Assembly: GCA_964596065.1 (NCBI GenBank)
Contig: CAZQSM010000001.1
Span: 1,623-65,622, forward strand
Reading direction: 5' to 3'
Source of the DNA: an uncultured Chlorobiaceae bacterium
GTDB lineage: Bacteria > Bacteroidota > Ignavibacteria > UBA10030 > SZUA-254
DNA: 64,000 nt
Both the position numbers and the translations under genes were made by a program. This document shows, piece after piece, positions 45,186 through 60,264 of this stretch; within the stretch, counting starts at the first letter, position 1, and every line of letters begins with the position of its first letter. Under the pieces are notes generated by a model. The model was not told the origin of the DNA. It ran no database searches and saw nothing but the letters and a program-made list of their open reading frames with translations.

Positions 45186-48100
45186 CTATTTCATCAGGAG
45201 TACCTTCTGCACAGCGGTGAACTCGCCGGCCGTCATCCTGATGACGTACATCCCTGTGGGGACCGCCTTGCCCGCTTCATCACGACCGTCCCACGAGAGC
45301 GTCAGTGAACCCGCTTCTTTCGTGCCGGCCAGCAGTGTGGCGACGAACCTTCCGAGGAGATCGTAGACCCCGACGTCCACCCGGGAGTTTTTCGGCAGAT
45401 CGACCTGCACGTGCGTCACCGGGTTGAACGGGTTCGGATAGTTTCTGCCGAGCGCGAACGCCTGGGGGAGGTCCGCAGGCTCGTCGGACAGTCTGACGAT
45501 GAATCCGGCATTCGAACCGGCCTCGCGGATCGTCACAGAACCGCTCCCTTCGATGGCACTGCCGGTCCCCTCATGCCCGATGAAATAGAATTTTCCCGAC
45601 CCGGCGGGCGGGGAGGCAATCTCCCAGCTGAGGGTGATCGGGTACGAAGCGCCCTGGACCAGCACCGGATAGTCACGGTTCGTTCCCGCATCCAGATCGG
45701 ACCAGCTTTCGAGCATCGTCTGCGATGAGAAGCGGACGTCGAATCCGCCCGAGGGGGGGAGGGGGGGAAGCTCGTAGAACCGGGTCCCCCGGACGAGGAC
45801 CGACGCCTCGGCGAGATAGACCGACTGCGACCGCCCGGCCGCGTCCCTCACCGTGAACCGGTTGGCCGCGCGGAGTTCGGCCGGCAGCTCCGCCTGCTTG
45901 GGCGCCGCGGCGGACGACGCCGTCATGTCGAGCGTTCCGGCCCCGTTGACCTTCACCCAGTATCCGCGGCCCGGTTGGATGGAGGTCGCCGTGGCGTATC
46001 CCGACGCCCCAAACCCGAAAAATGGGGAGGCGATGGTCGTACCGGTGGGCACGATCTCGGAGGTCGCGACGAAACCCGAGGGCCCGCCGATCAGGTTCCA
46101 TTTGTCCTGGACGGCGGCGACGACCGCGCTGTCGAACGTGCCGGGAGAACCTCCCACGCCGCCCGCGCCGTTGAACTTGAGCCAGTACCCTTTCCCCTGC
46201 GTCAGCGGGTCCGCGACGGCGTATCCGGCGCCGTATTCGTACGCCGACGAGGCCGAGGTCGGGAAGAGGGAGGACTTCGCGTAGTTCAGGTCGTTCGGCG
46301 TGAGCGATACGGCCACGATGTTCCAGCCGTCGAGGGCCGTCGTGCTGATGTTCGGGATGAGCCTGACGCACCAGTTATCCCTCGGCTTCGTCTCGTGGGG
46401 GTAGGTATTCCGGTTGACGTAGATCCACCCCGGGACCGGGCCAGAAATGTCGTTCGAATCGGCCTGCATCCCGACGAGGGCGAGGGAGTCGAGGCCGGTG
46501 GTGCCGACGCTTTCGTACTGGTATTCCACGCTCCCGTCGCACCGGTTCAGGACGGCGCGGAACGTCGTGATGTCCGGGATGGGTCCGTCCGTGTCGAAGG
46601 CGCCGATGGAATCCCACTGCACGATGAAGAGGCAGGGGTCAGCGTCGTTGCCGTAGAGGATCCGGCCGTACGTGGCCGCGGAGTCGCCGATGATGAAATC
46701 GGACCAGAACGGCGCTAAGAACATTCCCGGCATCCGGCCAGCGCGGTTGGTGTCCGTACGTCCGGTTTTCTGGGGGTTCGGGAAATCCCAACCGGTGGTC
46801 GCGAAGCCGTTTGAGTTGACGTCGAGCGTGTCGAGGGCGGACTTGCTCAGCGCCATCGCGCCGTTCACCCCGATCCAGGCGTATCGGAACGTGTCCGCGA
46901 ACATCGTGTAGGTCGCTCCCATGTCGTACGGTCCGGAGGTCCCGTCGTCCTTCGGCGCGGTACCGGAGCCGGAGTACGGCGGTACGAAGAAAGAGGCGGT
47001 GTCGACGGCGATCCCGCTGGCGGAGATGTCGTGGACGGTGCACGCGGCGCCCGTATCGGCAGTGAACCACTCGGTGCTGAGCTTCACGATCTTGTATGAG
47101 TTGGACCCGGTGGAATCTGCGAAGTCGTTCGAGTCGGCGGCGACGATTTTATAGGAAATCACGTCGTTGACCTCCGCCCCGGGGAGTGAACCTTCCCAGG
47201 TATCGGCGCCGAGGTAGAGCATGGGGATGTCGGGTTGGGCGACGTTATTGATGGTGTGCCGGATTTTCGCGTATTTGACGCCCGCCGACAACGGCGCCTC
47301 GGGATTGCAGTCGATGATCTGAGCCTGAACCACCTGGGGATCCGTCGAGAGCGTCGTGTTGACGTCGGTGACATTCTCGAAAACCGGCGGGATATTTGTT
47401 TCGACCGTCATCGTGTACCAGAAGAGGATATTGAAATCGCCCCTGGCCACCCACCCCGGGCACGTGAACCCCGGTTGGATTTCCACGATGTGTTCATAGA
47501 ATTTCCAGTTGTGGGTCGAAAGCGAATCCGTTTCGTTCACCGCCAGGAAACCGGTCTGGCTCTCTTCGGCCTGGGCAACATGGGGGCCGTAAATTCGGAT
47601 GGTGATGAAGAACGGGTCGCCGACAGTGACCTGCGGTTCCCCCAGAACTCCGAGGTCGTAAAAGTTGACCGCATTCGCCTGCTCGACCACCGGTGCGCCG
47701 CCGAAACCCCAGATTTCGTCCCCCATGGGTGTAAAGGAGGGGGTGGCTCCTGACACCGTGGAGTACCAGGTTGGGTCGGTGGCGTCTTCCGGAAATGCAG
47801 CGATGCCATTGTCGAGATCATCGGTATTGATGAAGTAACCCCAGCAGAGTCGGCCCGGTTTCGGGTAACCGCCATATCCGGGGCCACTTCCCGGATAAAT
47901 GTTCGATTTGAACAACCGAAGCGTGACGGTGGAATCTGCGGAGCCAACATCCGTGGCCCGCCAAAAAATCGTGTCGATCGTGCCGCTGGCGGGGGCCACG
48001 TACCACATCGCCATGATGTCCTGGTGGAATCCGATGTGGTTAGTCCCGGGGTTGGGGTTCTGTTCGAGCGTATAGCCGAATGTCGCCTGGTCGGTACAGA

Positions 48101-48269
48101 CCATCGTTGACGTGGCGTTACTCTGCGCGGCCATCGATTGTTTGAGAAGGTCGGCGGCACCCTGGTTTTTTCCGATCGGGATTGCGTCGCCGTACGGCGA
48201 TACGAGGACCCGTTGCTGCGATAGTGCCGGGAGCGTGCACACAAACAGGAAGAGGATCAATTTATTCAT
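45186..48269 (-). CDS. Large secreted protein with a NIDO-like domain and a canonical T9SS type-A / FlgD-like C-terminal domain
   Basis: MNKLILFLFVCTLPALSQ signal; LAPFWSDF..FIVQW; C-terminal LGRNYPNPFNP..VYDLLGR..WDGRD..G..VPTGMYVIRM..QKVLLMK. Confidence 0.8.
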   Translation of the reverse strand: MNKLILFLFVCTLPALSQQRVLVSPYGDAIPIGKNQGAADLLKQSMAAQSNATSTMVCTDQATFGYTLEQNPNPGTNHIGFHQDIMAMWYVAPASGTIDTIFWRATDVGSADSTVTLRLFKSNIYPGSGPGYGGYPKPGRLCWGYFINTDDLDNGIAAFPEDATDPTWYSTVSGATPSFTPMGDEIWGFGGAPVVEQANAVNFYDLGVLGEPQVTVGDPFFITIRIYGPHVAQAEESQTGFLAVNETDSLSTHNWKFYEHIVEIQPGFTCPGWVARGDFNILFWYTMTVETNIPPVFENVTDVNTTLSTDPQVVQAQIIDCNPEAPLSAGVKYAKIRHTINNVAQPDIPMLYLGADTWEGSLPGAEVNDVISYKIVAADSNDFADSTGSNSYKIVKLSTEWFTADTGAACTVHDISASGIAVDTASFFVPPYSGSGTAPKDDGTSGPYDMGATYTMFADTFRYAWIGVNGAMALSKSALDTLDVNSNGFATTGWDFPNPQKTGRTDTNRAGRMPGMFLAPFWSDFIIGDSAATYGRILYGNDADPCLFIVQWDSIGAFDTDGPIPDITTFRAVLNRCDGSVEYQYESVGTTGLDSLALVGMQADSNDISGPVPGWIYVNRNTYPHETKPRDNWCVRLIPNISTTALDGWNIVAVSLTPNDLNYAKSSLFPTSASSAYEYGAGYAVADPLTQGKGYWLKFNGAGGVGGSPGTFDSAVVAAVQDKWNLIGGPSGFVATSEIVPTGTTIASPFFGFGASGYATATSIQPGRGYWVKVNGAGTLDMTASSAAAPKQAELPAELRAANRFTVRDAAGRSQSVYLAEASVLVRGTRFYELPPLPPSGGFDVRFSSQTMLESWSDLDAGTNRDYPVLVQGASYPITLSWEIASPPAGSGKFYFIGHEGTGSAIEGSGSVTIREAGSNAGFIVRLSDEPADLPQAFALGRNYPNPFNPVTHVQVDLPKNSRVDVGVYDLLGRFVATLLAGTKEAGSLTLSWDGRDEAGKAVPTGMYVIRMTAGEFTAVQKVLLMK

Positions 48270-48316
48270 CGGGAGCCTCACAGATTGATAAAAAATTTGC
48301 GACGGGTAATCGACAC

Positions 48317-48345: not shown

Positions 48346-49091
48346 TTGTCGTCGCGCCGATTTCGGAGGGATTCGGTTTTTCGTTGAATGTGGCGAACAA
48401 GCCTGCCTAATGATGCCGGGCAGTACGGGTTGAAACGGTACAGATCCCGTATCAGATCGGGCGAGTTTCGGGCGGCCCGCCGGGCGATGATCCGGAGATG
48501 TTCGAAGCCCGCGGTCGTCATTCCTGGTACGCCTGGTCGCGCGGCTTGAGGGAACGTCTCCCCGATAAACTGGGTAAGGAAAAGACTGGATGACATTGAT
48601 TTATCGTGAGTAACGGCAGTCATCTCTATTGGCTTCAATCCCAGGGAAACGATGGTGCGCAGCAGCAGAAGGTGACAGGCCGGACTGCTCCTTCCCCGAC
48701 AGACGGCGACCGGATGACCGCCCTCTCCCGCCGGGGGAGTGTCGGGCCCGAAGAGGGGGTGAAGGCCGGCATATGATACCCCCGCGGGAAGGTGGGTTCC
48801 AAGCCACTTCAGCGGCGCGATTTTAACGGCGCAGAGGTCGGCAACGAATGCGCCATTCCTGACCCTCGACCCGTTGGATTCCAGGAATTGTTTCAGGCGG
48901 AGCGCCGGAAGCGCAAATATGATCAGGTCGAACCCGCCCAGGTCGGAGACCGATGCCCGTTTGAGTCCCCACCGAAGTCGGACCCCCCGACGCGTTTCGA
49001 GGATGTGGACGGTAAACCGCCTCCTGAGCAGCGCGGCGGCGAACGCGCCGAATCGACCATACCCGACGAGCAGGAGCGACGGTTTTTTCAT
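48342..49091 (-). CDS. tyrA: Prephenate/arogenate dehydrogenase (TyrA, short monofunctional form)
   Basis: GYGRFG Rossmann motif, DLCAVK, GLHPLFGP, HDKSM. Confidence 0.82.
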   Translation of the reverse strand: MKKPSLLLVGYGRFGAFAAALLRRRFTVHILETRRGVRLRWGLKRASVSDLGGFDLIIFALPALRLKQFLESNGSRVRNGAFVADLCAVKIAPLKWLGTHLPAGVSYAGLHPLFGPDTPPAGEGGHPVAVCRGRSSPACHLLLLRTIVSLGLKPIEMTAVTHDKSMSSSLFLTQFIGETFPQAARPGVPGMTTAGFEHLRIIARRAARNSPDLIRDLYRFNPYCPASLGRLVRHIQRKTESLRNRRDDN

Positions 49092-50422
49092 CGTTTCTGC
49101 ACCTGCCGGGAGTGGAGGAAAATCGCGGAGTAGACGCTCCGGAGTAGATGTTCGTCGAGGAGTGTCTGGTCGGCAACAAGGAGGAGCCTCCGGAGAATGG
49201 CGCGTTCCCTGCCGGGATCGCCGATTCTCGATCCGGCGCGCTTTTTCATCGAACCGAGCTCTCTCACCAGGCCCTGCCGTTCGTTGAGGAGGATCAGGAG
49301 GGCGTCATCGACGAGATCGATCTCCCGGCGCACCGCCGCGGGGGAGAGGGGCGGGCGGAGGAGCGACTGGCGGAGCAGGTGGTCCGCGATCACGACGGCG
49401 ATCATCGATTCGACGACCGGGACGACCCTGGGGCAGATGCACGGGTCGTGTCTCCCGGTCACGGAGATGCCGGCACTCCGTCCCCGCGTGTCCACCGTCC
49501 GCTGTCTCCTGCCGATCGACGAGGGTGGCTTCACGGCGACGCGGAGCACGATCTCCTCGCCGTTCGAAATTCCGCCGAGGATGCCGCCGGCGTGATTGGT
49601 GCGGGTGCGGACCCTCCCATCGCGACGGGAAACGTAGAGCTGATCGTTGTGCTCGCTCCCGTTCATCTTCGCCGCGGAAAACCCGGAACCGATTTCGACC
49701 CCCTTGACGGCCGGAATCGACATCACCGCCCGTGAGAGCTCCGCGTCGAGCTTGTCGAAAACCGGATCGCCGAGGCCCGCCGGGCACCCGCGTACCACCG
49801 CTTCCACGATCCCGCCGGCTGAATCCCCCTGTTTCCTCAGTGCCGTGATTCGCCGCTCCATCCTGAGCGCGGCCGCCGGGTCGGGGCAGCGCATCGGGTT
49901 CCGTTCGATCTCCGAGCGGACGACGCGACCGGCGCGGACGCCTGCCGCCTCGAGCGTGTAGGCAAAGATATCGATGCCCCGCTTCGCCAGGAGCTGCTTC
50001 GCCAGCCCCCCGGCGGCGACTCGCCCGGCCGTTTCGCGTCCGGAGGACCTGCCCCCGCCCCGGTAGTCGTGGATGCCGTACTTCGACAGGTACGTGTAGC
50101 CGGCGTGTCCGGGGCGGAAGAGATGACGCACGGATCTATACGCGCCGGGGTCCTGGTCTTCGTTCCTGATGAGCAGGCAGATCGGGGTGCCGAGGGTCTT
50201 CCCCCTGTAGACGCCGCTGACGATCTCCACGCGGTCCGTTTCCCGCCTCGGGGAGGTCACCGCGCTCTGGCCGGGGCGGCGGCGGTTGAGTTCATTCTGG
50301 ATGGCCGCTTCCGAAATCTTCAGGTTCGGGCGCACGCCGTCGATCAGGACGCCGACGGCCTTCCCGTGGCTCTCCCCGAACGTGGTAATCCTGAATAACG
50401 TGCCGATGGTATTTCCTGCCAT
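49088..50422 (-). CDS. aroC: Chorismate synthase fused to a C-terminal AroQ-type chorismate mutase
   Basis: TTFGESHG, RPGHA, RSSGRET, GRHDPC for AroC; then RREIDLVD..LLNER..MK..DPGRE..SRQVQ for AroQ; GGAG RBS before ATG 50422. Confidence 0.92.
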   Translation of the reverse strand: MAGNTIGTLFRITTFGESHGKAVGVLIDGVRPNLKISEAAIQNELNRRRPGQSAVTSPRRETDRVEIVSGVYRGKTLGTPICLLIRNEDQDPGAYRSVRHLFRPGHAGYTYLSKYGIHDYRGGGRSSGRETAGRVAAGGLAKQLLAKRGIDIFAYTLEAAGVRAGRVVRSEIERNPMRCPDPAAALRMERRITALRKQGDSAGGIVEAVVRGCPAGLGDPVFDKLDAELSRAVMSIPAVKGVEIGSGFSAAKMNGSEHNDQLYVSRRDGRVRTRTNHAGGILGGISNGEEIVLRVAVKPPSSIGRRQRTVDTRGRSAGISVTGRHDPCICPRVVPVVESMIAVVIADHLLRQSLLRPPLSPAAVRREIDLVDDALLILLNERQGLVRELGSMKKRAGSRIGDPGRERAILRRLLLVADQTLLDEHLLRSVYSAIFLHSRQVQKR

Positions 50423-50437
50423 TGGATTCACTCCGTG

Positions 50438-51700
50438 TCAGTTGAATTTTTCAAGTTCCGTCCAGAAACCCGGGAACGACTTCGCGACGCATCCCGGGTT
50501 GACGATCCGCACGCCGTCCAGGCCGAGTCCGGCCACGGCGAAACTCATGGCGATGCGATGGTCCCGGTAGGTTTCGATGACGGCGCCGCGCAGCGGCCCG
50601 GGGCTGATCGTCAGCGTCCCGCCGGAGACTCCGGCCCGGGCACCGATCTTCCCCAGCTCGTTGCAGAGCGCCGAGAGGCGGTCGGTCTCCTTGCGCTTCA
50701 GGTGTGCGACACCCGTTATGGCGGATGGTGTCGAGGCGAAGGCCGCGGCGACGGCGAGGGGAGGGACGCTGTCCGGGAGGGGGTTCATGTCGGTAGTGAT
50801 GCCCCGGAGGGTCCCGCCTTCGACGGTCACTCCGTCCGCGTCAAAACCGACAGCGCACCCCATCTCCCGGAGGAGGAGGAAGCAGCCGACGTCCCCCTGG
50901 AGGGAGTCGCGCCGGACGCCGCGGATCGTGACCCGGCTCTTCGTGATGGCCGCGGCGGCGCCGAAGAAGGCCGCCGATGAGAGGTCCGGCTCGACGTCAT
51001 ATTCGCGGGCGCGGTAGTGTCCCGCTGTGGCGAGCCTGTACGCTGCTCCCGCGGCCTCGGCACCGACACCGAAGTCGCGCATCACAGCGATTGTCATCGC
51101 GACATAGGGGGCGGAACTGAGGTCGCCGGCCAGCGTCATGACCAGCGGCGTCCGGCAAAAGGGCGCGACCAGGAGCAGCGCGGAGAGGAACTGGCTGCTT
51201 TCGTCCGCGGCGAGGGCGACGCGGCCGCCGAACGGCGCGCCGCCCCTGACCGTCACGGGAGGAAAACCGTCACGGCAGGAAGCATCCACGCCGGCTTCCA
51301 CGAGCGCCTGGACGAGCGGGGCCACGGGGCGTTGCAGCATCTCGGCGTCGCCGGTGAGCGTCGTGGCGCCAGGAACGAGGGCCGAGAACGCGGTCAGGAA
51401 ACGGAGGCAGGTCCCGGCGTTGCCGACGTGGATGGTCCGGTCACCGGCGGGCGGGCGTCCGCCGCAGCCGGCGATCCGTAGTGCACCGTGAGTTTCGTCG
51501 ATCCCGACGCCGAACTGCCGCAGCGCCCTGACCATCGTCAACGAATCGGATGAGGGTGACGGGTGCCGAATGACGCTCACGCCGTCGGCGAGCGCAGCGG
51601 CGATCAGCGCCCGCTGCGTATAGCTCTTCGACGGGGGGAGATCGACTGCCACGTTCCTTCGAACGGCCGGGCGGATGAGGCGCGGTTCCGTGCCGGTCAC
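50438..51700 (-). CDS. aroA: 3-phosphoshikimate 1-carboxyvinyltransferase (EPSP synthase)
   Basis: PPSKSYTQR, GNAGTCLRF, SSQFLSALL, KETDRL, DHRIAMSF. Confidence 0.95.
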   Translation of the reverse strand: MTGTEPRLIRPAVRRNVAVDLPPSKSYTQRALIAAALADGVSVIRHPSPSSDSLTMVRALRQFGVGIDETHGALRIAGCGGRPPAGDRTIHVGNAGTCLRFLTAFSALVPGATTLTGDAEMLQRPVAPLVQALVEAGVDASCRDGFPPVTVRGGAPFGGRVALAADESSQFLSALLLVAPFCRTPLVMTLAGDLSSAPYVAMTIAVMRDFGVGAEAAGAAYRLATAGHYRAREYDVEPDLSSAAFFGAAAAITKSRVTIRGVRRDSLQGDVGCFLLLREMGCAVGFDADGVTVEGGTLRGITTDMNPLPDSVPPLAVAAAFASTPSAITGVAHLKRKETDRLSALCNELGKIGARAGVSGGTLTISPGPLRGAVIETYRDHRIAMSFAVAGLGLDGVRIVNPGCVAKSFPGFWTELEKFN

Positions 51701-53130
51701 AGGAGTTCCAGGAACATCGCCGACTGCAATCGGGCCTGCGCGCCGTAGAGCTCTGCGCCGGTGATCACCGGAACTCCGCTGCGCCGGGCGTCCGCGACCA
51801 GGGTGGTCCGCCCACCGGGCGGGTTGGCGAAATCGCAGACCAGTTCATATCGGCCGAGGGAGGAGGGGGGGACGATCCTGCCGGCGCCCCGCGTTCCCGT
51901 TCCGGAATCCATCCCCACAGGCGTGGCGTTCACCAGGACGTCACCCTCGAAATCTGGTTGCTCCGGGAGCGGGATCCAGTCGCACCCGAACCGACGGGCC
52001 AGTTCGCGCGCGGCCCGCGTGTCGCGCCCCGCGATGGTGACCCTCGCGCCGGACACCGCGCCGACGCCGGCGACGGTGCCCGCTGTCCCACCTGTTCCAA
52101 GGACGAGGACCCGTTTGCCGGCGGGGTGGATCCGTTCCCTCAGCAACGAAAGGAGGGCGTGGAAATCGGTGTTCAGCCCGCGGAGCATGCCACGCTTGCG
52201 GAGTACCGTGTTCACCGAACCGGTGATGAGCGCGGAATCATCCAGCCGGTCGAGGAAGCCCGCGATCGACCGCTTGAAGGGCATGGTGACGCTCAGGCCG
52301 GTGATGTTCCCCGACATCAGGTCGAGGAACGCGCCGTCGTCGTCCGACGCGAAGTTGACGTACACGGCGTTTGCCCGTTTCTTGATGAATATGGCGTTAT
52401 GGTAGCGGATGCCGCCGCTGAACTCCACGGGATAGCCGAGGAGGCCGAAAACCCGCGTTCGGCGATCAAGACGGTCCGCGCGGTAGAGACCGGCCAGGTC
52501 GGCGATGGGAAGCTGCCCGGGTCCGGTGGGGTTGGCGGCGTCCGCCGACGCGAATGTCATCGCGCCGCCGAACACCCCCTGAAGGACCCTTGTGTAGCTC
52601 CCGAACCCTCCCATCGCGAGCGCGACCGCCGGCTGCCGGAGCGCGCGGGCCTCCGCAAGGATGTCGAGGACCCGACCGGTATCGCCGAAACAGACCGGGG
52701 TCGCGGCGATTTTTACGAAGGCCGGTTTCAGGGCGGCCATCGCGCGGAAGCGGGCGGGGAGATCGGCGGGCACACGACGGGTGTCGTGATACGAGAGAAT
52801 GATCCGTTGCCGGCCCGCCGCGCCGAAGAGTTTCCGGAGCAGGGGGGGGCCGAGGGAGAATTCCGCGTCCAGATATTCAGCGCCCGCCGACGCGGCTTCC
52901 ATCAGGAGATCCGCGGCCCGTCGCGGGGAACCGTCGAACAACCCTCCTTCCCGGCGGCTCCGGCAGGTGACGATCAACGGGGGCCGGGGGCGCGCCAGCA
53001 ATGGTCCGAGGGCGAATGTGTCGAGCCCGTCGATCCGAAGTTCCGCGGGGCTCTTCATCCCCGAGTGCCGTTTGAGGAATTTCGCGGCCTCCCGGAGCGA
53101 TCGGGGGGCTGACGAAGGGACGATGATCAT
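51697..53130 (-). CDS. aroDE: Bifunctional type-I 3-dehydroquinate dehydratase / shikimate dehydrogenase (AroD-AroE)
   Basis: AELRID, IVTCR..EGG, ILSYH, VKIA, AMG; then GLLGYP, GLSVTMPFK, GSVNT, NTD, LGTGGTA, NATPVGM. Confidence 0.88.
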   Translation of the reverse strand: MIIVPSSAPRSLREAAKFLKRHSGMKSPAELRIDGLDTFALGPLLARPRPPLIVTCRSRREGGLFDGSPRRAADLLMEAASAGAEYLDAEFSLGPPLLRKLFGAAGRQRIILSYHDTRRVPADLPARFRAMAALKPAFVKIAATPVCFGDTGRVLDILAEARALRQPAVALAMGGFGSYTRVLQGVFGGAMTFASADAANPTGPGQLPIADLAGLYRADRLDRRTRVFGLLGYPVEFSGGIRYHNAIFIKKRANAVYVNFASDDDGAFLDLMSGNITGLSVTMPFKRSIAGFLDRLDDSALITGSVNTVLRKRGMLRGLNTDFHALLSLLRERIHPAGKRVLVLGTGGTAGTVAGVGAVSGARVTIAGRDTRAARELARRFGCDWIPLPEQPDFEGDVLVNATPVGMDSGTGTRGAGRIVPPSSLGRYELVCDFANPPGGRTTLVADARRSGVPVITGAELYGAQARLQSAMFLELL

Positions 53131-54209
53131 CGCCCCAGCGCCTCTTCGAGGAGCGGCCGGGGAACCTCGACTCCCCAAACCCCCCGGCCGATGGCGGAAA
53201 GGAGGGAAAACCGGACGATGCCGTCCGCCCGCTTCTTGTCGAACCGGAGGGCCCGCAGGAGGGCGGACCGGGTCAGGTTCGCCGGAACCGTGACTGGCAG
53301 GCCGTAGGAGCTGAGGAGTTCGCGGATGCGCTCAAGATCGCGACCGTCGATCATCCCCATGGCGCAGGAGATCCGCGCCTCGGCCGCCATCCCGATCGCA
53401 ACCGCCTCGCCGTGCGTGACCCTGTATCCGGAGGTGTGTTCCACTGCGTGCCCGATGGTATGGCCGAAATTGAGGAGCTTCCTCCCCGCGGTCTCGCGTT
53501 CATCGGCGGCGACGAGCTTTCCCTTGAGCGCGCACGAACGGGCTATCACCCGGGAGACCAATGACATGTTTCGCGCGCGGATCGGGCCGACCGACCGGCC
53601 GAGAAGGTCCACGAACCGACGGTCGAGGATGAGGCCGATCTTGATCACCTCGGCAAACCCCCGGATATATTCCCTTTCAGGGAGGGTACGGAGGAATGCG
53701 GGATTCGTCAGAACGGCCACGGGCTGGTGGAAGGAGCCGAGGAGATTTTTTCCCATCGGGTGGTCGATCCCGACCTTGCCGCCGATCGAGCTGTCGACCT
53801 GCGCTACGAGCGATGTGGGCACCTGGACCAGCCGTACCCCCCGGAGGATCGTGGCGGCAGCGAAGCCCGCCAGGTCGCCGACGACCCCGCCCCCGAAGGC
53901 GGCGACGACGCACTCCCTGTCCGCCCCGGAGCGGATGAGCTCGTCCTCGAGCCGGTCACGCGTCCGGCGGCTTTTGTTCCGCTCGCCGGTGGGGAGGACG
54001 ATCGTGCGGAATCGCGCGCCACGGCCTGCGAGCATCCGTTCGAGGGTTTCGCCATGATACGAGTGCACGTTTCGGTCGGTGACGAGGAAGAGGGTCGTTC
54101 CCCGCGCGGCGGCGGCCAGGCGCGACGCGACCTCTGCCGTTCCGGAGCAGAAATGAACGGGACACACCCGGGAAGGGGCAGGCGACCATCTGATGACGAG
54201 ACTCTTCAT
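53127..54209 (-). CDS. aroB: 3-dehydroquinate synthase
   Basis: GERNKS, AFGGGVVGDLAGF, QVPTSL.AQVDSSIGGK, KNLLGSF, LNFGHTIGHA, HGEAVAIG; start ATG 54209. Confidence 0.93.
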   Translation of the reverse strand: MKSLVIRWSPAPSRVCPVHFCSGTAEVASRLAAAARGTTLFLVTDRNVHSYHGETLERMLAGRGARFRTIVLPTGERNKSRRTRDRLEDELIRSGADRECVVAAFGGGVVGDLAGFAAATILRGVRLVQVPTSLVAQVDSSIGGKVGIDHPMGKNLLGSFHQPVAVLTNPAFLRTLPEREYIRGFAEVIKIGLILDRRFVDLLGRSVGPIRARNMSLVSRVIARSCALKGKLVAADERETAGRKLLNFGHTIGHAVEHTSGYRVTHGEAVAIGMAAEARISCAMGMIDGRDLERIRELLSSYGLPVTVPANLTRSALLRALRFDKKRADGIVRFSLLSAIGRGVWGVEVPRPLLEEALGR

Positions 54210-54216
54210 CGTGCGG

Positions 54217-55020
54217 TCACCGGGAATCGAGCGCCGTCCGGAGCGTGGAGGTGAATTCCGTCGCGGCCCGCCTTCCTTCGGCTGGCGGTCCGCCGGCGAG
54301 CCTCGAGACCAACGCGCTCCCCACGATGACGCCGTCGCAAGCCGCGGCCACGGTCCGTGCAGAAGCGGCGTCCGAGATGCCGAACCCGGCGAGGAACGGG
54401 GTCCGTCCCACCAAAGGCCGCGCCCGGCGCAGGAAGGCAAGCGTGTCATCCCCGACTCCGTGACGGACCCCGGTGACTCCGAGCGTCGAGACGCCGTAGA
54501 CGAAACCGGTCGAGACCATGCCAATTTCGACGATCCGTTCATCAGGGGTGGTCTGCGAAACGAGAAAGATGGTCGACAGGCCTGCCGATGCCGCGAGCGA
54601 CCGGTAGTGGGTGCTTTCCTCCGGGGGAAGATCGGGTATGATCATCCCATCCGCACCGACGGCCGCAGCGTCACGGACGAACGCCCCGAGGCCATAACTG
54701 AAGAGAGGGTTGGCATAACTCATCAATATAATCGGGATGGCGGCGCATTTCCTAATTTCGCATACCATTCCGAGGACGGACGCGGGAGTGACTCCGAGAG
54801 CCAGGGCGCGGTGGCTGCTCGCCTGGATGACCGGCCCGTCCGCGATCGGATCGGAGAAGGGTATCCCGATCTCGACGATGTCGGCTCCCGCCTCCGAAAG
54901 TCCTGCCACGAGGCCAGGGAGGAGGTCGGGGGCCGGAAGGCCGGCGGTAATGAAGACTGTAAGGACCTTACGCCCGGATCCGACGTTGGCGGCGAGCACC
55001 CGTTCGAGCGCCGTCATCAC
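54217..55020 (-). CDS. trpA: Tryptophan synthase alpha chain
   Basis: EIGIPFSDPIADGPVIQ, MSYAN, PDLP, GVTG, GFGIS, DGVIVGSA. Confidence 0.95.
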   Translation of the reverse strand: MMTALERVLAANVGSGRKVLTVFITAGLPAPDLLPGLVAGLSEAGADIVEIGIPFSDPIADGPVIQASSHRALALGVTPASVLGMVCEIRKCAAIPIILMSYANPLFSYGLGAFVRDAAAVGADGMIIPDLPPEESTHYRSLAASAGLSTIFLVSQTTPDERIVEIGMVSTGFVYGVSTLGVTGVRHGVGDDTLAFLRRARPLVGRTPFLAGFGISDAASARTVAAACDGVIVGSALVSRLAGGPPAEGRRAATEFTSTLRTALDSR

Positions 55021-56225
55021 CGATCACCAACCGCCGCGTGCTTCGCGAGCGCGCCGAGGTCCTTGTCGCCACGGCCGGAGAGGCCGACGACGACCACGTC
55101 TCCCCGGTCCGTCTGCGGCATCAGGCGTTCGAGATGGGCGATCGCGTGCGCCGACTCGAGCGCGGGGAGGATCCCCTCAAGGGCCGTCAGCATCAGCGCC
55201 GCGTCGAGCGCCTCCCGGTCAGACGCGGACGCGCAGATCAGCCGGCCCGCACTCCTGAGGTAACTCAGTTCCGGGCCGACGCCCGGATAGTCGAGCCCCG
55301 CGGAGATGGAATGCGCCGGAAGGATCTGTCCTGACTCGTCCTGGAGGAGGTACGACCTCGAGCCGTGCAGGATACCGGGTCGGCCCGCCGAGAGGGACGC
55401 GGCGTGGCGGGAAGTGCCGAGCCCCTCCCCGGCCGCCTCGACCGCAACAAGTCCGGCCCCGGTCCGGATGAATTCGTGGAAGAGCCCGATCGCGTTGCTC
55501 CCGCCTCCGACGCACGCCACGAGGTGGGCGGGGGTCCCGAGACCCGCCTCGCCGAGCTGACCCGCCACCTCGCGCCCGATCACAGACTGGAAGTCGCGAA
55601 CGATGACCGGGTAGGGGTGGGGACCAACGGCGGAACCGAGGATGTAGAACGTGTCGCGCACGTTGGTAACCCAGTCGCGGAGCGCTTCACTCGTTGCGTC
55701 CTTGAGGGTTCCGGTGCCTGCGGAAACGGGGACAAGGTCGGCCCCGAGAAGTTTCATCCGCCGCACGTTGAGCGCCTGCCGCTCCATGTCGGCGGTGCCC
55801 ATGTAAATGACGCACGGGATCTTCATGAGCGCTGCGACGGTCGCCGTGGCCACGCCGTGCTGGCCGGCGCCGGTCTCCGCCACGATCCGGCGCTTGCCCG
55901 AGCGGCTGGCGAGGAGCGCCTGGCCGAGCGTGTTGTTGATTTTATGGGCCCCGGTGTGGCAGAGGTCCTCCCGCTTCAGGTAGATGGTCCCCCGGCCGTA
56001 ACGCGCCGTGAGGTTGTCGGCCCGGTAGAGTGGCGTGGGACGTCCCGCGAAATCCCTCAGTAGCCGCCGGAGCGTATCGGCGAAATCGGGATCGTCGGCG
56101 GCTTCCCGGTACGCACGCTCGAGCTCGGTGAGCGGGGCGATAAGGGTTTCGGGGACATATCTCCCCCCGAACTCCCCGAAACGGCCGGCTGCGTCAGGGT
56201 AGGGGTACGGGTCGGCACGGGTCAT
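55017..56225 (-). CDS. trpB: Tryptophan synthase beta chain
   Basis: [54 protein letters not shown]; start ATG 56225. Confidence 0.97.
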
Positions 56226-57268
56226 CGGTGCGCCTCCTCGGATTGTGGGGCGCCAAGAAAAGTTCGTCCCAGCGCCGGGGCGATCGCGCTGATCCGCCGG
56301 ATGAGTTCCCCGAGCCTGGCGGGTTTGAGCGACTGGTATCCGTCGGAGAGCGCCGACGCGGGGTCCGCGTGCGTCTCGATCATCAGGCCGTCGGCCCCCG
56401 CCGCCACGGCGGCGAGCGCCATGTCGGACACGAGCTCCCACGCCCCCGTGCCATGGCTCGGGTCGACGATGATCGGCAGGTGCGAGGCTTTTCTGACCAC
56501 CGGGACGGCGTTCAGGTCGAGCGTAAACCGGGTGGCCGGTTCAAAGGTCCGGATCCCCCGCTCGCACAGGATGACCTCGTAGTTTCCGGCGGCGACGATG
56601 TATTCCGCCGCCATCAGGAACTCCTCGATGGTCGACGACATCCCCCGCTTGAGGAGGACCGGTTTACCGGCCCTGCCGACAGCCTCGAGCAGCGGGTAAT
56701 TCTGCATGTTTCGTGCGCCGATCTGAACGATGTCGGCGACCGTCGAAACGTCGTCCACCGTCGCGGGCTCCATCACCTCGGTGACGATCCGCATCCCGGT
56801 CAGCGCACGTGCCTCCGCGAGGTATTCGAGCGCCGCCCCCTTGAGGCCCCTGAACGCGTAGGGTGATGTGCGCGGTTTGAAGGCGCCGCCCCGGAGGAAC
56901 GTGACCCCGAGTTCGCTCAGCGTCCCGGCGATCCCGACAATCTGGTCGCGGCTCTCGACCGAACAGGGGCCGGCGATCAACGCGATTTCGTTGCCGCCGA
57001 TCGCCCGGTCGCCGAACGGGATGACGGTATTTTCCCGCTTGACCTCCCGGCTGACAAGTTTGTACGGCTTCGAGACCGCAATCGCCTCGACGACGCCGGG
57101 AAGGTTGAGGAACAGGTCGGGATCGAGTTTCGAATGGTTGCCGGTGATGCCGATCGCGATCCGGCGCTCGCCGGGAATTTCGTGGGGAACGAAACCGAGG
57201 TCCCTGATCTTCCGGGCGACGGCGTCCACGCGGTTCCGGCCCGCGTCGAGATTCATGATGATGAGCAT
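56222..57268 (-). CDS. aroF: DAHP synthase type I-beta with N-terminal ferredoxin-like regulatory domain
   Basis: [48 protein letters not shown]. Confidence 0.93.
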
Positions 57269-57277
57269 ACGCGCCTT

Positions 57278-57907
57278 TCAGTTGATGGTGGCTGATCTGA
57301 TGTTTCCACAGAAATTCCTGACGAGGACCGGGTCCTTGATTCCCGGTCGCGCTTCCGTCCCGCTGCCGACGTCCACGGCGTAAGGGCGGACCCGCCCGGC
57401 AATCTCGACGACGTTCGACGGGGTGAGGCCCCCCGCCAGAAACAGTTTTCGGGAGCGGGAGAGGGTAGTCGCGAATTCGAGGTCGGCCGGCGTACCCGAT
57501 CCCCCGTAGACCCCCGGGCCCCCTCCGTCGACCATCGCGGCGAAGACGTCGTACGCGTCAGGGGAGGGGGATGGCACCCCCTCCGCAGGGGGCCTGAACA
57601 CCTTGATCACCGGGAGGGTGATCAGGCGGCAGAGCCCGGGTGGTTCGTCGCCGCTCAGCTGGACGAGCCGGATACCGGACGCGGTCGCGGCCCCCGCCAC
57701 CGCCGCCGCCGAGGGATTGACGAAGACCCCGACAGGGATGACATCCACCGGGAGACTCCTGATGATCGTTCCCGCCAGCCCGGGGGTGATGAACCTCTTG
57801 CTCATCGGGACAAAGATGAATCCGAGGTAATCAGCGCCGGCCCCGGCGCACACGAGTGCGTCGTCGAGGTTCGTGATGCCGCAGATTTTAATCCTGATGG
57901 AGTTCAT
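57278..57907 (-). CDS. trpF: Phosphoribosylanthranilate isomerase
   Basis: IKICGIT, LGFIF..SKR, VGVFVN, YGGSG, LAGGL, DVGSG.E..PG.KD. Confidence 0.92.
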   Translation of the reverse strand: MNSIRIKICGITNLDDALVCAGAGADYLGFIFVPMSKRFITPGLAGTIIRSLPVDVIPVGVFVNPSAAAVAGAATASGIRLVQLSGDEPPGLCRLITLPVIKVFRPPAEGVPSPSPDAYDVFAAMVDGGGPGVYGGSGTPADLEFATTLSRSRKLFLAGGLTPSNVVEIAGRVRPYAVDVGSGTEARPGIKDPVLVRNFCGNIRSATIN

Positions 57908-58679
57908 CGATCATCGCCTCGAGGCATCGCCCCGGTTCCGGGTCCCGCATGAAGTATTCACCCATCAGCACGGCGTCGACTCCCGACCCCGCGACGCGCC
58001 GGACGTCCGCCGCCGACCGGAGTCCGCTTTCGCTCACGGTGACGACACCGCGGGGGAGGAGCTCTCCGATCCTCGGCGTGGTCTGGAGGTCGACGGAAAA
58101 ATCGCCGAGGTCCCGGTTGTTGATCCCGACGAGGCGAACGACCGAGAAATCGATCATCTCCAGCTCTTCGGGGCGGTGCACCTCGACGAGGCACTCCATG
58201 CCCAGTTCGGCGGCCCTGCCGTGCAGGTCCCGGAGGCGGCCCGCGTCGAGGATCGAGGCGATCAGGAGGATCGCGTCGGCGCCGAGCGATTTAGCCTCCA
58301 CCACCTGGATCTCCTCGATGACGAAATCCTTCCGCAGCACCGGGACGGGGGAGACGGCGCGCACGGCGGCCAGGTCCCCGGGGCTCCCGGAGAAGAAACG
58401 GACATCGGTCAGGACCGATACCGCAGAGGCGCCGTTCGACGCGTATGCCACCGCGAGGCCTGCGGGGTCATCCGTCCCCCTGATCATACCGGCGGACGGC
58501 GACGCCCGCTTGATCTCAGCGATCACCGCGGGGCGCCGGGCCCGGACAATGGCGTCGCGGAGCGACCGCACGGGGAGATGGAATCCGGGAAGGTCATCGA
58601 ATCCGCCGCCAGGCCTGGCTCGGCGGAGCACCGCCGCTTCCTCGCGTTTTACCGCGACGATCCGGTCGAGGATGGTCAT
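57888..58679 (-). CDS. trpC: Indole-3-glycerol phosphate synthase
   Basis: IAEIKRASPS, SVLTD..FF.G, LRKDF, GADAILL, LVEVH, GINNRDL, SESG. Confidence 0.95.
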   Translation of the reverse strand: MTILDRIVAVKREEAAVLRRARPGGGFDDLPGFHLPVRSLRDAIVRARRPAVIAEIKRASPSAGMIRGTDDPAGLAVAYASNGASAVSVLTDVRFFSGSPGDLAAVRAVSPVPVLRKDFVIEEIQVVEAKSLGADAILLIASILDAGRLRDLHGRAAELGMECLVEVHRPEELEMIDFSVVRLVGINNRDLGDFSVDLQTTPRIGELLPRGVVTVSESGLRSAADVRRVAGSGVDAVLMGEYFMRDPEPGRCLEAMIDELHQD

Positions 58680-59701
58680 CGGGTCGTGTACTCCACCAGG
58701 CGCCGGAGCGCCACGAGGGCACTCCCCGCGTCGATCGACACGGCGCAGCGTTCGTACGCCTCAGCATGTGTCAACCCATCGCGGGCGACCATCAGCCCGA
58801 GCGAGGCGTTCATCAGGACGAAGTCCCTCGCCGGCCCGGGGGTCCCTGAAAGGACCTCGAGCGCGATCTGCGCGTTGCGCGCGGGCGAGCCGCCGGCGAC
58901 GGCGCCGAGGCAGGGGGCGCGGACGAGCCCGAACGTTGACGGGTCGATGACGTATCGTCGTTCCTCCGTTGTCAGCCTGAACTCCCGGACCCGGGTCGGA
59001 GCCTGCGGGGACATCTCATCGAGCCCGTCGTCGGCGTTGAGGACCATGGCGGCGGCGGGACGCGTTTCCCGGAGGATCGAGGCGAGCGTGTCCGCGGCCG
59101 AGGAGTTGTACGCCCCGACCACCTGGCGGCGGACGCCGGCGGGGTTCGCGAGGGGGCCGAGGAGGTTGAAGCAGGTGCGGAACCCGAGGTCCGCGCGGGC
59201 GCGCGAGACGGTCTTCATCGCGGGATGGTAGATCGGGGCGAAGAGGAACCCGACGCCGGTTTCGTTGATGCACGCCTCCATCGTCTCCGGGGGAGCGTCG
59301 ATCCTGACGCCGAGCTCGCGTAGAACGTCGGCGCTGCCGGAAGCGCTCGACACCGAGCGGTTTCCATGCTTGGCGACCGTCACTCCGGTTCCCGCGAGGA
59401 CGAACGCGGCGACCGTGGAGACGTTGAAGGTCCCGAGGCCGTCGCCGCCCGTTCCGCACACGTCCACGGCATCGGGGTCGTCCAGGGTGACGCGGCGGGC
59501 GCGTTCCCGGAAGGCGTCGAGGAACCCGAGGAGTTCCTCCGTGCGGTCGCCCCTGACGCGGAGCGCGGCAAGATAGCCGCCGATCTGCGCGTCGGTCGCC
59601 GCGCCATCCATGATCTCCCCCATGGCCAGGGCCGCTTCGTCTCTCGAGAGGTGCGCACCTTCGACCGTCATGGCGATGCAGTATCTCAGCCCGGCAGTCA
59701 C
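58676..59701 (-). CDS. trpD: Anthranilate phosphoribosyltransferase
   Basis: DVCGTGGDG..TFNVST, KHGNRSVSS.SGSAD, FAPIYHPAMK, FNLLGPL.NP, GLDE; GTG start 59701 overlapping the trpG stop. Confidence 0.95.
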   Translation of the reverse strand: MTAGLRYCIAMTVEGAHLSRDEAALAMGEIMDGAATDAQIGGYLAALRVRGDRTEELLGFLDAFRERARRVTLDDPDAVDVCGTGGDGLGTFNVSTVAAFVLAGTGVTVAKHGNRSVSSASGSADVLRELGVRIDAPPETMEACINETGVGFLFAPIYHPAMKTVSRARADLGFRTCFNLLGPLANPAGVRRQVVGAYNSSAADTLASILRETRPAAAMVLNADDGLDEMSPQAPTRVREFRLTTEERRYVIDPSTFGLVRAPCLGAVAGGSPARNAQIALEVLSGTPGPARDFVLMNASLGLMVARDGLTHAEAYERCAVSIDAGSALVALRRLVEYTTR

Positions 59702-60264
59702 AGCGTCTCGAGCCAGTTGTTCACGATCGCCGCGCCCGCGGGAGTCAGGATCGATTCCGGGTGAAATTGAACTCCCCGCACCGGGTGGGAGGAGTGCCGG
59801 ATGCCCATGATCGTCCCGTCCTCCGTTTCGGCGGTCACGCGGAGGGCCTCCGGAAGGTTCCACCGGGAAACGACGAGTGAGTGATACCGTCCTGCGCCAA
59901 ACGGGCTCGCGACGCCGCGGAAGATATCGGTTCCGTCGTGCCGGACGGCCGAGGCGCGGCCGTGAACGCACTCCACGTGCCGGACGACCTCGGCGCCGTA
60001 GGCGACCCCGATCGCCTGGTGCCCGAGGCAGACGCCGAGGATCGGAATGGAAGATCCGAAACGCCGTATCAGCCCGAGCGTGACCCCCGCCTGTTCAGGA
60101 CGCCCGGGGCCGGGGGAGAGGACGATCCCCCCGGGCGACGAGGCGGCCACGTCTTCGGACGTAACGGCATCGTTCCTCACGACCATGACCTCCCGTCCAG
60201 CCACTCCGATCATATGGGCAAGGTTATGGGTGAATGAGTCGTAGTTGTCTACCAGGAGAATCAT
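59698..60264 (-). CDS. trpG: Anthranilate synthase component II
   Basis: DNYDSFT, LSPGPG.P, GVCLGHQ, RYHSL, QFHPES. Confidence 0.95.
   Translation of the reverse strand: MILLVDNYDSFTHNLAHMIGVAGREVMVVRNDAVTSEDVAASSPGGIVLSPGPGRPEQAGVTLGLIRRFGSSIPILGVCLGHQAIGVAYGAEVVRHVECVHGRASAVRHDGTDIFRGVASPFGAGRYHSLVVSRWNLPEALRVTAETEDGTIMGIRHSSHPVRGVQFHPESILTPAGAAIVNNWLETL

Follow-up and report, generated by a model that had tools for sequence, protein, structure and literature searches.

Chorismate mutase (CM) domains of the AroQ class occur in several described fusion proteins. In the P-protein of E. coli (PheA, CM-prephenate dehydratase-ACT) and its T-protein (TyrA, CM-prephenate dehydrogenase), an EcCM-type AroQ domain with eight active-site residues is joined at the N-terminus to an adjacent-step partner that consumes prephenate. 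[quoted passage not shown] An AroQ domain may keep its catalytic residues and still act mainly allosterically, as in the DAH7PS-CM of Bacillus and Geobacillus. The CM domain of P. gingivalis DAH7PS-CM likewise retains its catalytic residues while regulating its partner (PMC12202928). Sequence searches have also uncovered exported CM-CDT and CDT-CM proteins, in which CM is joined to an enzyme of a neighbouring step (Stocker et al., 2023; PMC10520331). Chorismate synthase itself is known from monofunctional AroC structures (H. pylori 1UM0, S. pneumoniae 1QXO), and the extra activity of the fungal "bifunctional chorismate synthase" of the literature is a flavin reductase, not CM.

The 64-kb stretch of DNA analysed here (the window), from an Ignavibacteria-like bacterium, carries a gene in which chorismate synthase (AroC) is followed by an AroQ-class CM domain (Table 1). 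This AroC::AroQ protein is a real, widespread, and uncharacterised variant of the known CM-fusion enzymes. We know of no other fusion that tethers CM to the enzyme making its substrate.

Table 1. Features of the AroC::AroQ gene and its surroundings, by position in the window.
Feature	Position	Strand	Basis and remarks
trpE	60261-61742	-	Pfam
trpG	59698-60264	-	Pfam
trpD	58676-59971	-	Pfam; start uncertain
trpC	57888-58679	-	Pfam
trpF	57278-57907	-	Pfam
DAHP synthase, 348 aa	56222-57268	-	Pfam; N-terminal FXD domain, without CM
trpB	55017-56441	-	Pfam; start uncertain
trpA	54217-55020	-	Pfam
aroB (3-dehydroquinate synthase)	53127-54542	-	Listed ORF
aroD::aroE fusion (type I dehydroquinase + shikimate dehydrogenase)	51697-53178	-	Pfam DHquinase_I, Shikimate_dh_N
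aroA (EPSP synthase)	50438-51700	-	PF00275, 351 bits; adjoins fusion gene upstream
aroC::aroQ fusion gene	49088-50422	-	444 aa from ATG at 50422
AroC domain	49373-50395	-	Residues about 10-350 of the 444-aa protein; Pfam, NCBIfam, AF2
Linker, short, non-helical	49343-49357	-	Residues 356-360, inside RPPLSPAA; AF2 secondary structure and sequence
AroQ-class CM domain	49091-49342	-	Residues 361-444; Pfam CM_2, 1ECM alignment, AF2 model
tyrA-like prephenate/arogenate dehydrogenase, 249 aa	48342-49091	-	Pfam PDH_N, 28.7 bits (cut-off 26.5)

The in-frame AroC-AroQ fusion of the original prediction proved to be real, both Pfam domains being full-length in one ORF. The uninterrupted reading frame (49088-50431, minus strand, 447 aa) begins with a GTG at 50431, but the true start is likely the ATG at 50422, which is preceded by a GGAG and gives a protein length in keeping with the 444-445 aa of homologues; the ORF read from this ATG agrees with the coordinates first proposed. 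The predicted short PPLSP linker is also present. It spans about 5 residues, connects the last AroC helix (residues 330-355) to CM helix 1, and lies in a stretch that is poorly conserved among homologues.

By family membership and predicted fold, the N-terminal domain is a complete chorismate synthase. Pfam Chorismate_synt (PF01264) matches residues 13-353 of the 447-aa ORF over its whole length (model 1-327/327) at 461.7 bits (cut-off 27), and two NCBIfam chorismate synthase equivalogs score above threshold (NF003793, 464.9 bits, cut-off 321; TIGR00033, 446 bits, cut-off 212.2). When the single-chain AF2 model of the fusion protein (pLDDT 77) was compared by Foldseek with 28 solved chorismate synthase chains, E values ranged from 1e-19 to 1e-33 and target TM-scores from 0.74 to 0.93; solved enzymes such as 1um0 and 7rca were matched with TM-scores of 0.83-0.84. 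The AroC core is 33-44% identical to solved chorismate synthase structures, with TM-scores of 0.75-0.85. Foldseek returned no solved structure that aligns over both domains, each match being confined to one of the two.

The C-terminal tail matches Pfam CM_2 (PF01817) across the entire model (1-80/80; residues 367-446 of the 447-aa ORF) at 60.3 bits (cut-off 27). When the last 90 aa were aligned by phmmer with E. coli CM (PDB 1ECM, the P-protein's own CM domain), the alignment was in register and bore out the claim that every E. coli AroQ catalytic residue is kept: all eight are found, with EcCM R11, R28, K39, D48, R51, E52, S84, and Q88 corresponding to R365, R382, K393, D402, R405, E406, S438, and Q442 of the 444-aa protein. 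The three CM helices predicted by AF2 (H1, 361-396; H2, 403-419; H3, 424-443) reproduce the AroQ protomer topology, and the modelled tail superposes on 1ecm with an rmsd of 1.1-1.2 A over 82-84 columns (1.1-1.3 A when 2d8d is included). Across 120 homologues, conservation of the residues equivalent to R11, R28, K39, R51, E52, and Q88 reaches 95-98%, against 20-60% for the majority of other tail positions; S84 is replaced by Ala in about half of these homologues and D48 by Asn in 11%. Because the catalytic residues are conserved so far above the rest of the tail, purifying selection on catalysis is indicated. None of more than 20 NCBIfam CM subfamily models reaches its cut-off, the best being TIGR01791 (CM_archaeal) at 46-50.6 bits against 66.95, and the domain is therefore AroQ-class but outside every curated CM subfamily. 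An identity as a PchB-type isochorismate-pyruvate lyase was rejected, NF005475 scoring 18-23 bits against a cut-off of 126, as were other AroQ side activities, for which there were weak sub-threshold matches only; in both cases linkage to tyrA favours CM. The tail is a putative active CM, judging from its residues, its predicted fold, its co-variation with tyrA, and the replacement by a DAHPS::CM described below.

The gene belongs to an operon for aromatic amino acid synthesis. The stop codon of aroC::aroQ (TGA, 49088-49090) shares bases with the tyrA start (ATGA), an overlap that suggests translational coupling; NCBIfam prephenate dehydrogenase models match this tyrA weakly. Upstream, beyond aroA and an aroD::aroE gene whose start codon is uncertain and which is also found at a related locus, L081, Pfam scans identified the rest of the cluster at 54217-61742 (minus strand). 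The true start of aroB is probably near 54230, since the listed ORF overlaps trpA and a homologue has 366 aa. The trpE gene, predicted to share an operon with the fusion, was indeed found in the same minus-strand cluster. The window protein had no exact match in the contig index, and context was compared through the L081 fusion protein (P0019, 67% identical); the order of the upstream genes is the same there. Chorismate_synt is the only partner domain of the fused CM; TyrA and DAHP synthase of the window are separate genes without CM, and elsewhere in the 64-kb window there is no second CM, no prephenate dehydratase, and no AroK-type shikimate kinase.

Far from being the rarity of a single genome, the fusion is the form that aroC normally takes in much of Ignavibacteriota and Calditrichota. 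The AroC::CM architecture was found in more than 220 protein clusters at the 90% identity level (55-95% identical), and about 115 of the 120 best homologues (59-95% identity) have both Pfam domains. It also occurs in at least 8 further divergent clusters of a 50%-identity library, 38-51% identical to the window protein; one distant fusion-bearing lineage has an archaeal-type shikimate gene context. Ignavibacterium album, Melioribacter roseus, and Caldithrix abyssi were not among the matches listed. Members of Ignavibacteriota and Calditrichota are common in bioreactors, sediments, and soils. In fused proteins, divergence of the core is correlated with divergence of the tail (r = 0.78), in keeping with two domains that have long been inherited in a single gene, and the fusion looks ancestral to the clade of Ignavibacteriota and Calditrichota. 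Of the possibility raised at the outset, that such a fusion is already common and described, the first half holds; as to the second, full-text literature searches found no published description of an AroC::AroQ fusion, in line with the original prediction, which knew of no characterised AroC fusion. Among the proteins listed, all source names are simply "chorismate synthase".

A connection between the tail and aromatic amino acid synthesis comes from the 55 loci in the clade whose downstream sequence was long enough for comparison. Wherever the CM tail is intact, tyrA lies directly downstream (31/31); where the tail is truncated, degenerate, or missing, tyrA is absent from 23 of 24 loci (Fisher p about 1e-14, uncorrected for phylogeny). 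Shared ancestry inflates this association, since parsimony on a neighbour-joining tree suggests that only about 7-10 of the losses were independent. Tailless AroC proteins occur in nested relatives, including L012, L018, L026, and L029. At L012, tailless aroC is followed by Iso_dh and a protein of ~1000 aa, while at L081 the order is aroC::CM, tyrA, Iso_dh, and a protein of ~1050 aa, from which it follows that loss of the CM domain went along with loss of tyrA. Other relatives have partial tails; one group has a 41-aa tail consisting of helix 1 only (conserved at 44% pairwise identity across a clade), and another has tails of 70-85 aa that lack R11, K39, R51, and E52. The single exception among the 24 loci, L057 (Calditrichia), retains both tyrA and pheA. 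The catalytic residues are gone from its AroC tail, which scores 21.8 bits with CM_2, below the cut-off, and the operon at this locus contains an intact C-terminal DAHP-synthase::CM (CM, 70.8 bits). The idea that this DAHPS-borne CM is a moved Calditrichota AroC tail was rejected: its identity to such tails, about 27-28%, does not exceed its identity to other CMs, and so it is not a recent relocation. The pheA found near the fusion in Calditrichota-type operons encodes PDT-ACT only, without a CM domain.

Taken together, these data point to a bifunctional chorismate synthase/CM whose CM domain feeds the Tyr/Phe branch, a reading to which we assign a probability of roughly 0.8, with CM activity deduced from sequence. 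The AroC domain would convert EPSP to chorismate, and the AroQ domain, a three-helix EcCM-like unit that would need a second copy to complete its active sites, would convert chorismate to prephenate; dimerisation of the CM domains within the AroC oligomer is presumed. Prephenate would then pass towards tyrosine through the translationally coupled TyrA and towards phenylalanine through a prephenate dehydratase encoded elsewhere. In this lineage the fused domain would supply the CM step of the Tyr/Phe branch. The fusion would have been passed on as a single gene from a time before Ignavibacteriota and Calditrichota split, with the tail dropped upon loss of the Tyr branch gene or takeover by another CM. 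The likeliest gain would be a fixed 1:1 co-expression of the chorismate producer and the first enzyme committed to Tyr/Phe.

Several other explanations were weighed. That aroC and aroQ are really two genes, with the stop codon that divides them lost through sequencing or assembly error, has a negligible probability. One relative, L001 (a MAG, 82% identical), does have an ORF split by a 1-nt deletion within the CM domain, but this is probably a sequencing error, because the downstream frame is still CM-like. In the window, positions 48900-50500 showed 0 differences and 0 gaps against contigs from four public runs (two studies, of sand and bioreactor metagenomes; word depth 8-23), and the AroC/CM junction has no in-frame stop, the other two frames being closed or without a nearby start. 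Identical contigs in four runs, together with the many homologues holding both Pfam domains (more than 220 independent clusters share the in-frame architecture), exclude a lost stop or frameshift and settle a check that the original prediction had called for. A genuine fusion could still carry a tail that does no chemistry, a helical extension that only steadies AroC oligomers and whose likeness to CM is vestigial. The 41-aa and 70-85-aa tails, helical remnants unable to catalyse, show that such extensions exist in some relatives; however, the catalytic residues are among the best-conserved tail positions in the window protein and in about 95% of full-length homologues, and the tail has been cleanly deleted with tyrA in several lineages, making this very improbable. 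By analogy with DAH7PS-CM, whose CM domains (2d8d, 5gmu, 3nvt, 5j6f) rank with the solved structures nearest to the tail, the AroQ domain might instead mainly sense chorismate or prephenate and control AroC allosterically. Against this, the tail of L057 decayed beside a DAHPS::CM while the Tyr/Phe genes stayed, which indicates redundancy in catalysis rather than AroC-specific regulation; most organisms, nested relatives among them, have an AroC that works without a tail; and feedback control here is probably exerted through the FXD domain of DAHP synthase. A regulatory module is thus improbable.

The original prediction proposed channelling, in which tethered CM might take chorismate as it leaves AroC and favour prephenate over TrpE and other users, possibly in a lattice of AroC tetramers and AroQ dimers. 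The two domains run consecutive reactions across a very short linker, the fusion has long been retained, and trpE is co-transcribed with it, so that the operon does face the problem of how to divide chorismate between users. Nevertheless, in structural and kinetic work the CM-CDT fusion gave neither channelling nor catalytic gain from tethering (PMC10520331), and since Trp, menaquinone, and folate synthesis need free chorismate, any channelling must leak; we consider it unlikely. A related and somewhat more doubtful proposal is a branch-point commitment device, in which AroQ domains of different AroC protomers would dimerise across or between AroC tetramers and organise an assembly that turns part of the newly made chorismate into prephenate before it mixes with the TrpE/menaquinone/folate pool. 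If this were true, the conserved helix-1-only remnants without tyrA would show that the tail has an additional, structural function in AroC oligomerisation.

The bifunctional reading has consequences for genome annotation. With these proteins labelled "chorismate synthase" and no NCBIfam CM cut-off reached, automated reconstructions can report CM as missing, and in Ignavibacteriota and Calditrichota CM, and hence Tyr/Phe biosynthesis, may look absent though present. The fusion also offers a natural system in which to ask if covalent proximity at a metabolic branch point shifts flux partitioning. The graded series of intact, catalytically dead, helix-1-only, and absent tails, which tracks tyrA, makes it possible to study how the loss of a domain is coupled to a pathway being lost or replaced.

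Chorismate synthase thus joins the list of AroQ fusion partners as a new entry. AroC::AroQ shares with the P- and T-proteins the same eight-residue EcCM-type domain and an adjacent-step partner, but here the CM is C-terminal and the partner makes the substrate of CM rather than consuming its product; TyrA is a separate protein, as is PheA, without CM, in related operons. Like DAH7PS-CM, it joins AroQ to a shikimate-pathway enzyme, here the seventh rather than the first, and the DAHP synthase of the window operon has an FXD domain in the place of the CM of DAH7PS-CM. Its core is like that of monofunctional AroC, to which the CM tail is added. Whereas the CM-CDT proteins are AroQ-gamma, periplasmic, monomeric, and extremely rare, being found in nine species (PMC10520331), AroC::AroQ is cytoplasmic, EcCM-like, and phylum-wide.

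The aroC::aroQ gene occupies an uninterrupted reading frame on the minus strand (49088..50431) of 447 aa when counted from GTG. The true product is most likely 444 aa, starting from the ATG at 50422, because a GGAG lies just 5' of that codon and homologues are 444-445 aa long; this is the span, 49088-50422, that had been proposed originally. Within the 447-aa frame, Pfam places Chorismate_synt at residues 13-353 (461.7 bits); the chorismate mutase (CM) domain, CM_2, is complete and covers residues 367-446 (60.3 bits, model 1-80/80). Both domains are far over their gathering scores and are separated by the linker RPPLSPAA; the in-frame AroC-AroQ fusion noted originally is real. The NCBIfam chorismate synthase equivalogs are satisfied (464.9 bits, cut-off 321), and all curated NCBIfam CM models score under their cut-offs on this protein. 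Precomputed Pfam annotations show the architecture, which is therefore not hidden from domain databases; among the matches listed, every source name for AroC::CM proteins is "chorismate synthase".

An artefactual origin of the fusion, through a lost stop codon or frameshift, is ruled out. The region 48900-50500 is reproduced with no differences and no gaps in independently assembled contigs from four public runs of two studies (sand and bioreactor metagenomes), and the same architecture is found in homologues, with both Pfam domains present in about 115 of the 120 best matches to the protein (59-95% identical) and in about 110 of the 120 best matches to a distant fused relative. In the closest species representative (L001, 82% identical), a single-base deletion within the CM domain splits the reading frame (L001:7020-7340). 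Since recognisable, conserved CM is still encoded past the deletion in another frame, the MAG probably contains a sequencing error here rather than a pseudogene.

The catalytic residues that the original prediction read by eye, R11, R28, K39, D48, R51, E52, S84 and Q88 in E. coli CM numbering, are all retained, with numbering unshifted, in a phmmer alignment of the last 90 residues to 1ECM. Across 120 homologues, R11, R28, K39, R51, E52 and Q88 are conserved at 95-98% and D48 at 81% (Asn in 11%), position 84 is Ala or Ser, and most remaining positions of the tail, the part beyond the chorismate synthase core, are conserved at only 20-60%. Such a pattern is the signature of selection on catalysis, not on a helix as such. 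In an AlphaFold2 model (mean pLDDT 77; 79-92 in the final seven 10-residue blocks of the tail), the core terminates in a helix (330-355) followed by a five-residue break and three tail helices (361-396, 403-419 and 424-443). In Foldseek, every solved chorismate synthase matched the core, and the tail matched 1ecm (rmsd 1.1-1.2 A), Thermus thermophilus CM and the CM domains of DAH7PS-CM enzymes; it returned no solved structure aligning over both core and tail.

The fusion is gene 12 of 13 in a tightly packed minus-strand cluster that, as stated originally, includes trpE: trpE, trpG, trpD, trpC, trpF, DAHP synthase, trpB, trpA, aroB, aroD::aroE, aroA, aroC::aroQ and tyrA. Its stop codon shares bases (ATGA) with the start of tyrA, which encodes a 249-aa TyrA-like dehydrogenase. 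The same gene order surrounds a protein 67% identical in the related locus L081. The cluster DAHP synthase has an N-terminal ferredoxin-like (FXD) regulatory domain and is without a CM domain. No second CM domain was found anywhere in the 64-kb window, and neither prephenate dehydratase nor an AroK-type shikimate kinase was found in the cluster or the window. The aroD::aroE architecture is known in plants, some bacteria and archaea (PMC11237513). In L081 and in the tail-less locus L012, too, the operon is followed by a large protein similar to the one downstream of tyrA here.

Features of the window and of homologous loci (L numbers) that bear on the fusion
Locus	Position	Strand	Feature	Remark
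Window	54217-61742	-	Interleaved trp/aro section	DAHP synthase between trpF and trpB; aroB after trpA
Window	51697-53178	-	aroD::aroE fusion (type I dehydroquinase + shikimate dehydrogenase)	Kept in relatives L081, L084
Window	45186-48281	-	1031-aa protein, FlgD_ig / Por_Secre_tail (type IX secretion) C-terminal sorting domain	Directly 3' of tyrA
L057	3294-4427 and 5956-7305		DAHP synthase with CM; AroC with dead tail
L091	16-4022 and 4054-9237		aro genes beside menaquinone genes
L012, L017, L018, L026, L029, L036, L044, L047			Tail-less AroC	Nested in clade
L009, L021, L028, L030, L032, L033, L037, L038, L087-L091			41-aa helix-1-only tail
L050, L052, L057, L059, L065			70-85-aa tail	Helical pattern kept; R11/K39/R51/E52 lost

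Among species representatives (one genome per species), full-length fusions were found in Ignavibacteriota and Calditrichota. The AroC proteins nearest after these (Omnitrophota, Margulisbacteria, Nitrospirota and others) end 0-15 residues past the core. A neighbour-joining tree of AroC cores places the fusion at the root of an Ignavibacteriota + Calditrichota clade, with repeated departures nested inside, and parsimony suggests about 7-10 independent losses. Core and tail identities among fused proteins are correlated (r = 0.78), as expected for two domains travelling together as one gene. When 1.8 billion cluster representatives were searched exhaustively, at least eight further clusters of this architecture emerged, more divergent and 38-51% identical to the window protein. 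One is from a MAG labelled Myxococcota, in an operon of aroB, aroD::E, aroA, aroK and aroC::CM; another (L085:8001-9380) lies in an archaeal-type shikimate context, with a DeoC-like gene, a PF01959 dehydroquinate synthase and a GHMP-kinase-type gene where the archaeal shikimate kinase sits; a prephenate dehydrogenase gene follows the fusion there. In more distant bacteria (L097:39-3223 and L098:5015-7340), a tail-less AroC is followed immediately 3' by a CM-PDT-type P-protein gene, with the CM N-terminal in L098 and after about 240 residues of a 628-aa reading frame in L097; such adjacency could be a precursor state of the fusion. Public data also hold AroC fusions with shikimate kinase, one C-terminal to AroC and one with AroC C-terminal (P0171, 586 aa; P0123, 539 aa).

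The state of the tail follows that of tyrA. Among clade loci with at least about 1.2 kb of downstream sequence, plus the window, an intact tail was accompanied by tyrA immediately downstream in 31 of 31 cases, while a truncated, degenerate or absent tail lacked it in 23 of 24 (Fisher p about 1e-14, an upper bound on significance as the loci are related). The sole exception, L057 from a Calditrichia genome, retains tyrA and a CM-less pheA. Its AroC tail is catalytically dead (CM_2 21.8 bits), but an intact C-terminal CM (70.8 bits) is borne by the DAHP synthase; it looks like one CM fusion has been replaced by another inside one operon. Comparison of L012 (tail-less aroC, Iso_dh, large secreted protein) with L081 (aroC::CM, tyrA, Iso_dh, large secreted protein) shows that the CM domain and tyrA vanished together. 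The pheA of Calditrichota-type operons is PDT-ACT only. Together with the helix-1-only loci, these observations argue that the tail functions as the Tyr/Phe-branch chorismate mutase: retained where that branch is encoded alongside, redundant where another CM is present, and dispensable for AroC itself.

The best-supported reading from these sequence comparisons, with a probability of about 0.8, is that the fused enzyme is bifunctional and that its AroQ domain is catalytically active. A mainly regulatory domain, as in DAH7PS-CM, is less likely, as L057 and the nested tail-less AroCs count against it. A purely structural tail does not fit the conserved catalytic residues here, but a structural role may apply to the helix-1-only remnants. 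These consist of about 41 aa, to about the K39 position (e.g., L030:6001-7191), and cannot form an active site; their pairwise identity of 44% (80% for the core) and a retained pattern like L.LID...L...RK....GK hint at a residual structural role. In L091, of this helix-1-only clade, aroB, aroD::E, aroA and aroC adjoin futalosine-pathway menaquinone genes (an MqnA/D-like VitK2_biosynth gene and a radical-SAM MqnC/E-like gene) and ubiE, and no trp or tyrA genes were found on the 17.6-kb contig, which suggests that quinone synthesis is the main use of the chorismate produced there.

The original observation is thus correct, and its interpretation is supported in part. That the fused CM channels chorismate to prephenate is possible, though less likely. 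The same operon must also feed TrpE, so channelling cannot be complete, and in the one CM fusion found to have been examined for this, a CM-CDT enzyme, tethering brought no benefit (PMC10520331). Co-expression and fixed stoichiometry are a more economical explanation of the bifunctional enzyme. The architecture itself was borne out, and it is not confined to this genome, given its spread over two phyla and the divergent clusters.

A fusion of chorismate synthase with chorismate mutase, of which no characterised example is known, went unmentioned in full-text literature searches. The passages that term searches retrieved from a 2024 survey of archaeal fusion proteins give aroD-aroE, aroE-aroK and CM-PheA(-TyrA), with AroC-CM absent from them. 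The fusion is unnamed and uncharacterised; its interest for enzymology is moderate, and it matters in practice for the annotation of Tyr/Phe biosynthesis in two phyla that are common in the environment. What the literature calls "bifunctional chorismate synthase" has flavin reductase as its second activity, unlike the CM described here. The window domain is an EcCM-like AroQ (EcCM, the E. coli CM), and domains of this kind are known to be fused to prephenate dehydratase, prephenate dehydrogenase or DAH7P synthase and, in rare cases, to cyclohexadienyl dehydratase (PMC10520331; PMC1173090). The AroC fusion is a widespread and apparently ancient variant of this known family of AroQ fusion enzymes.
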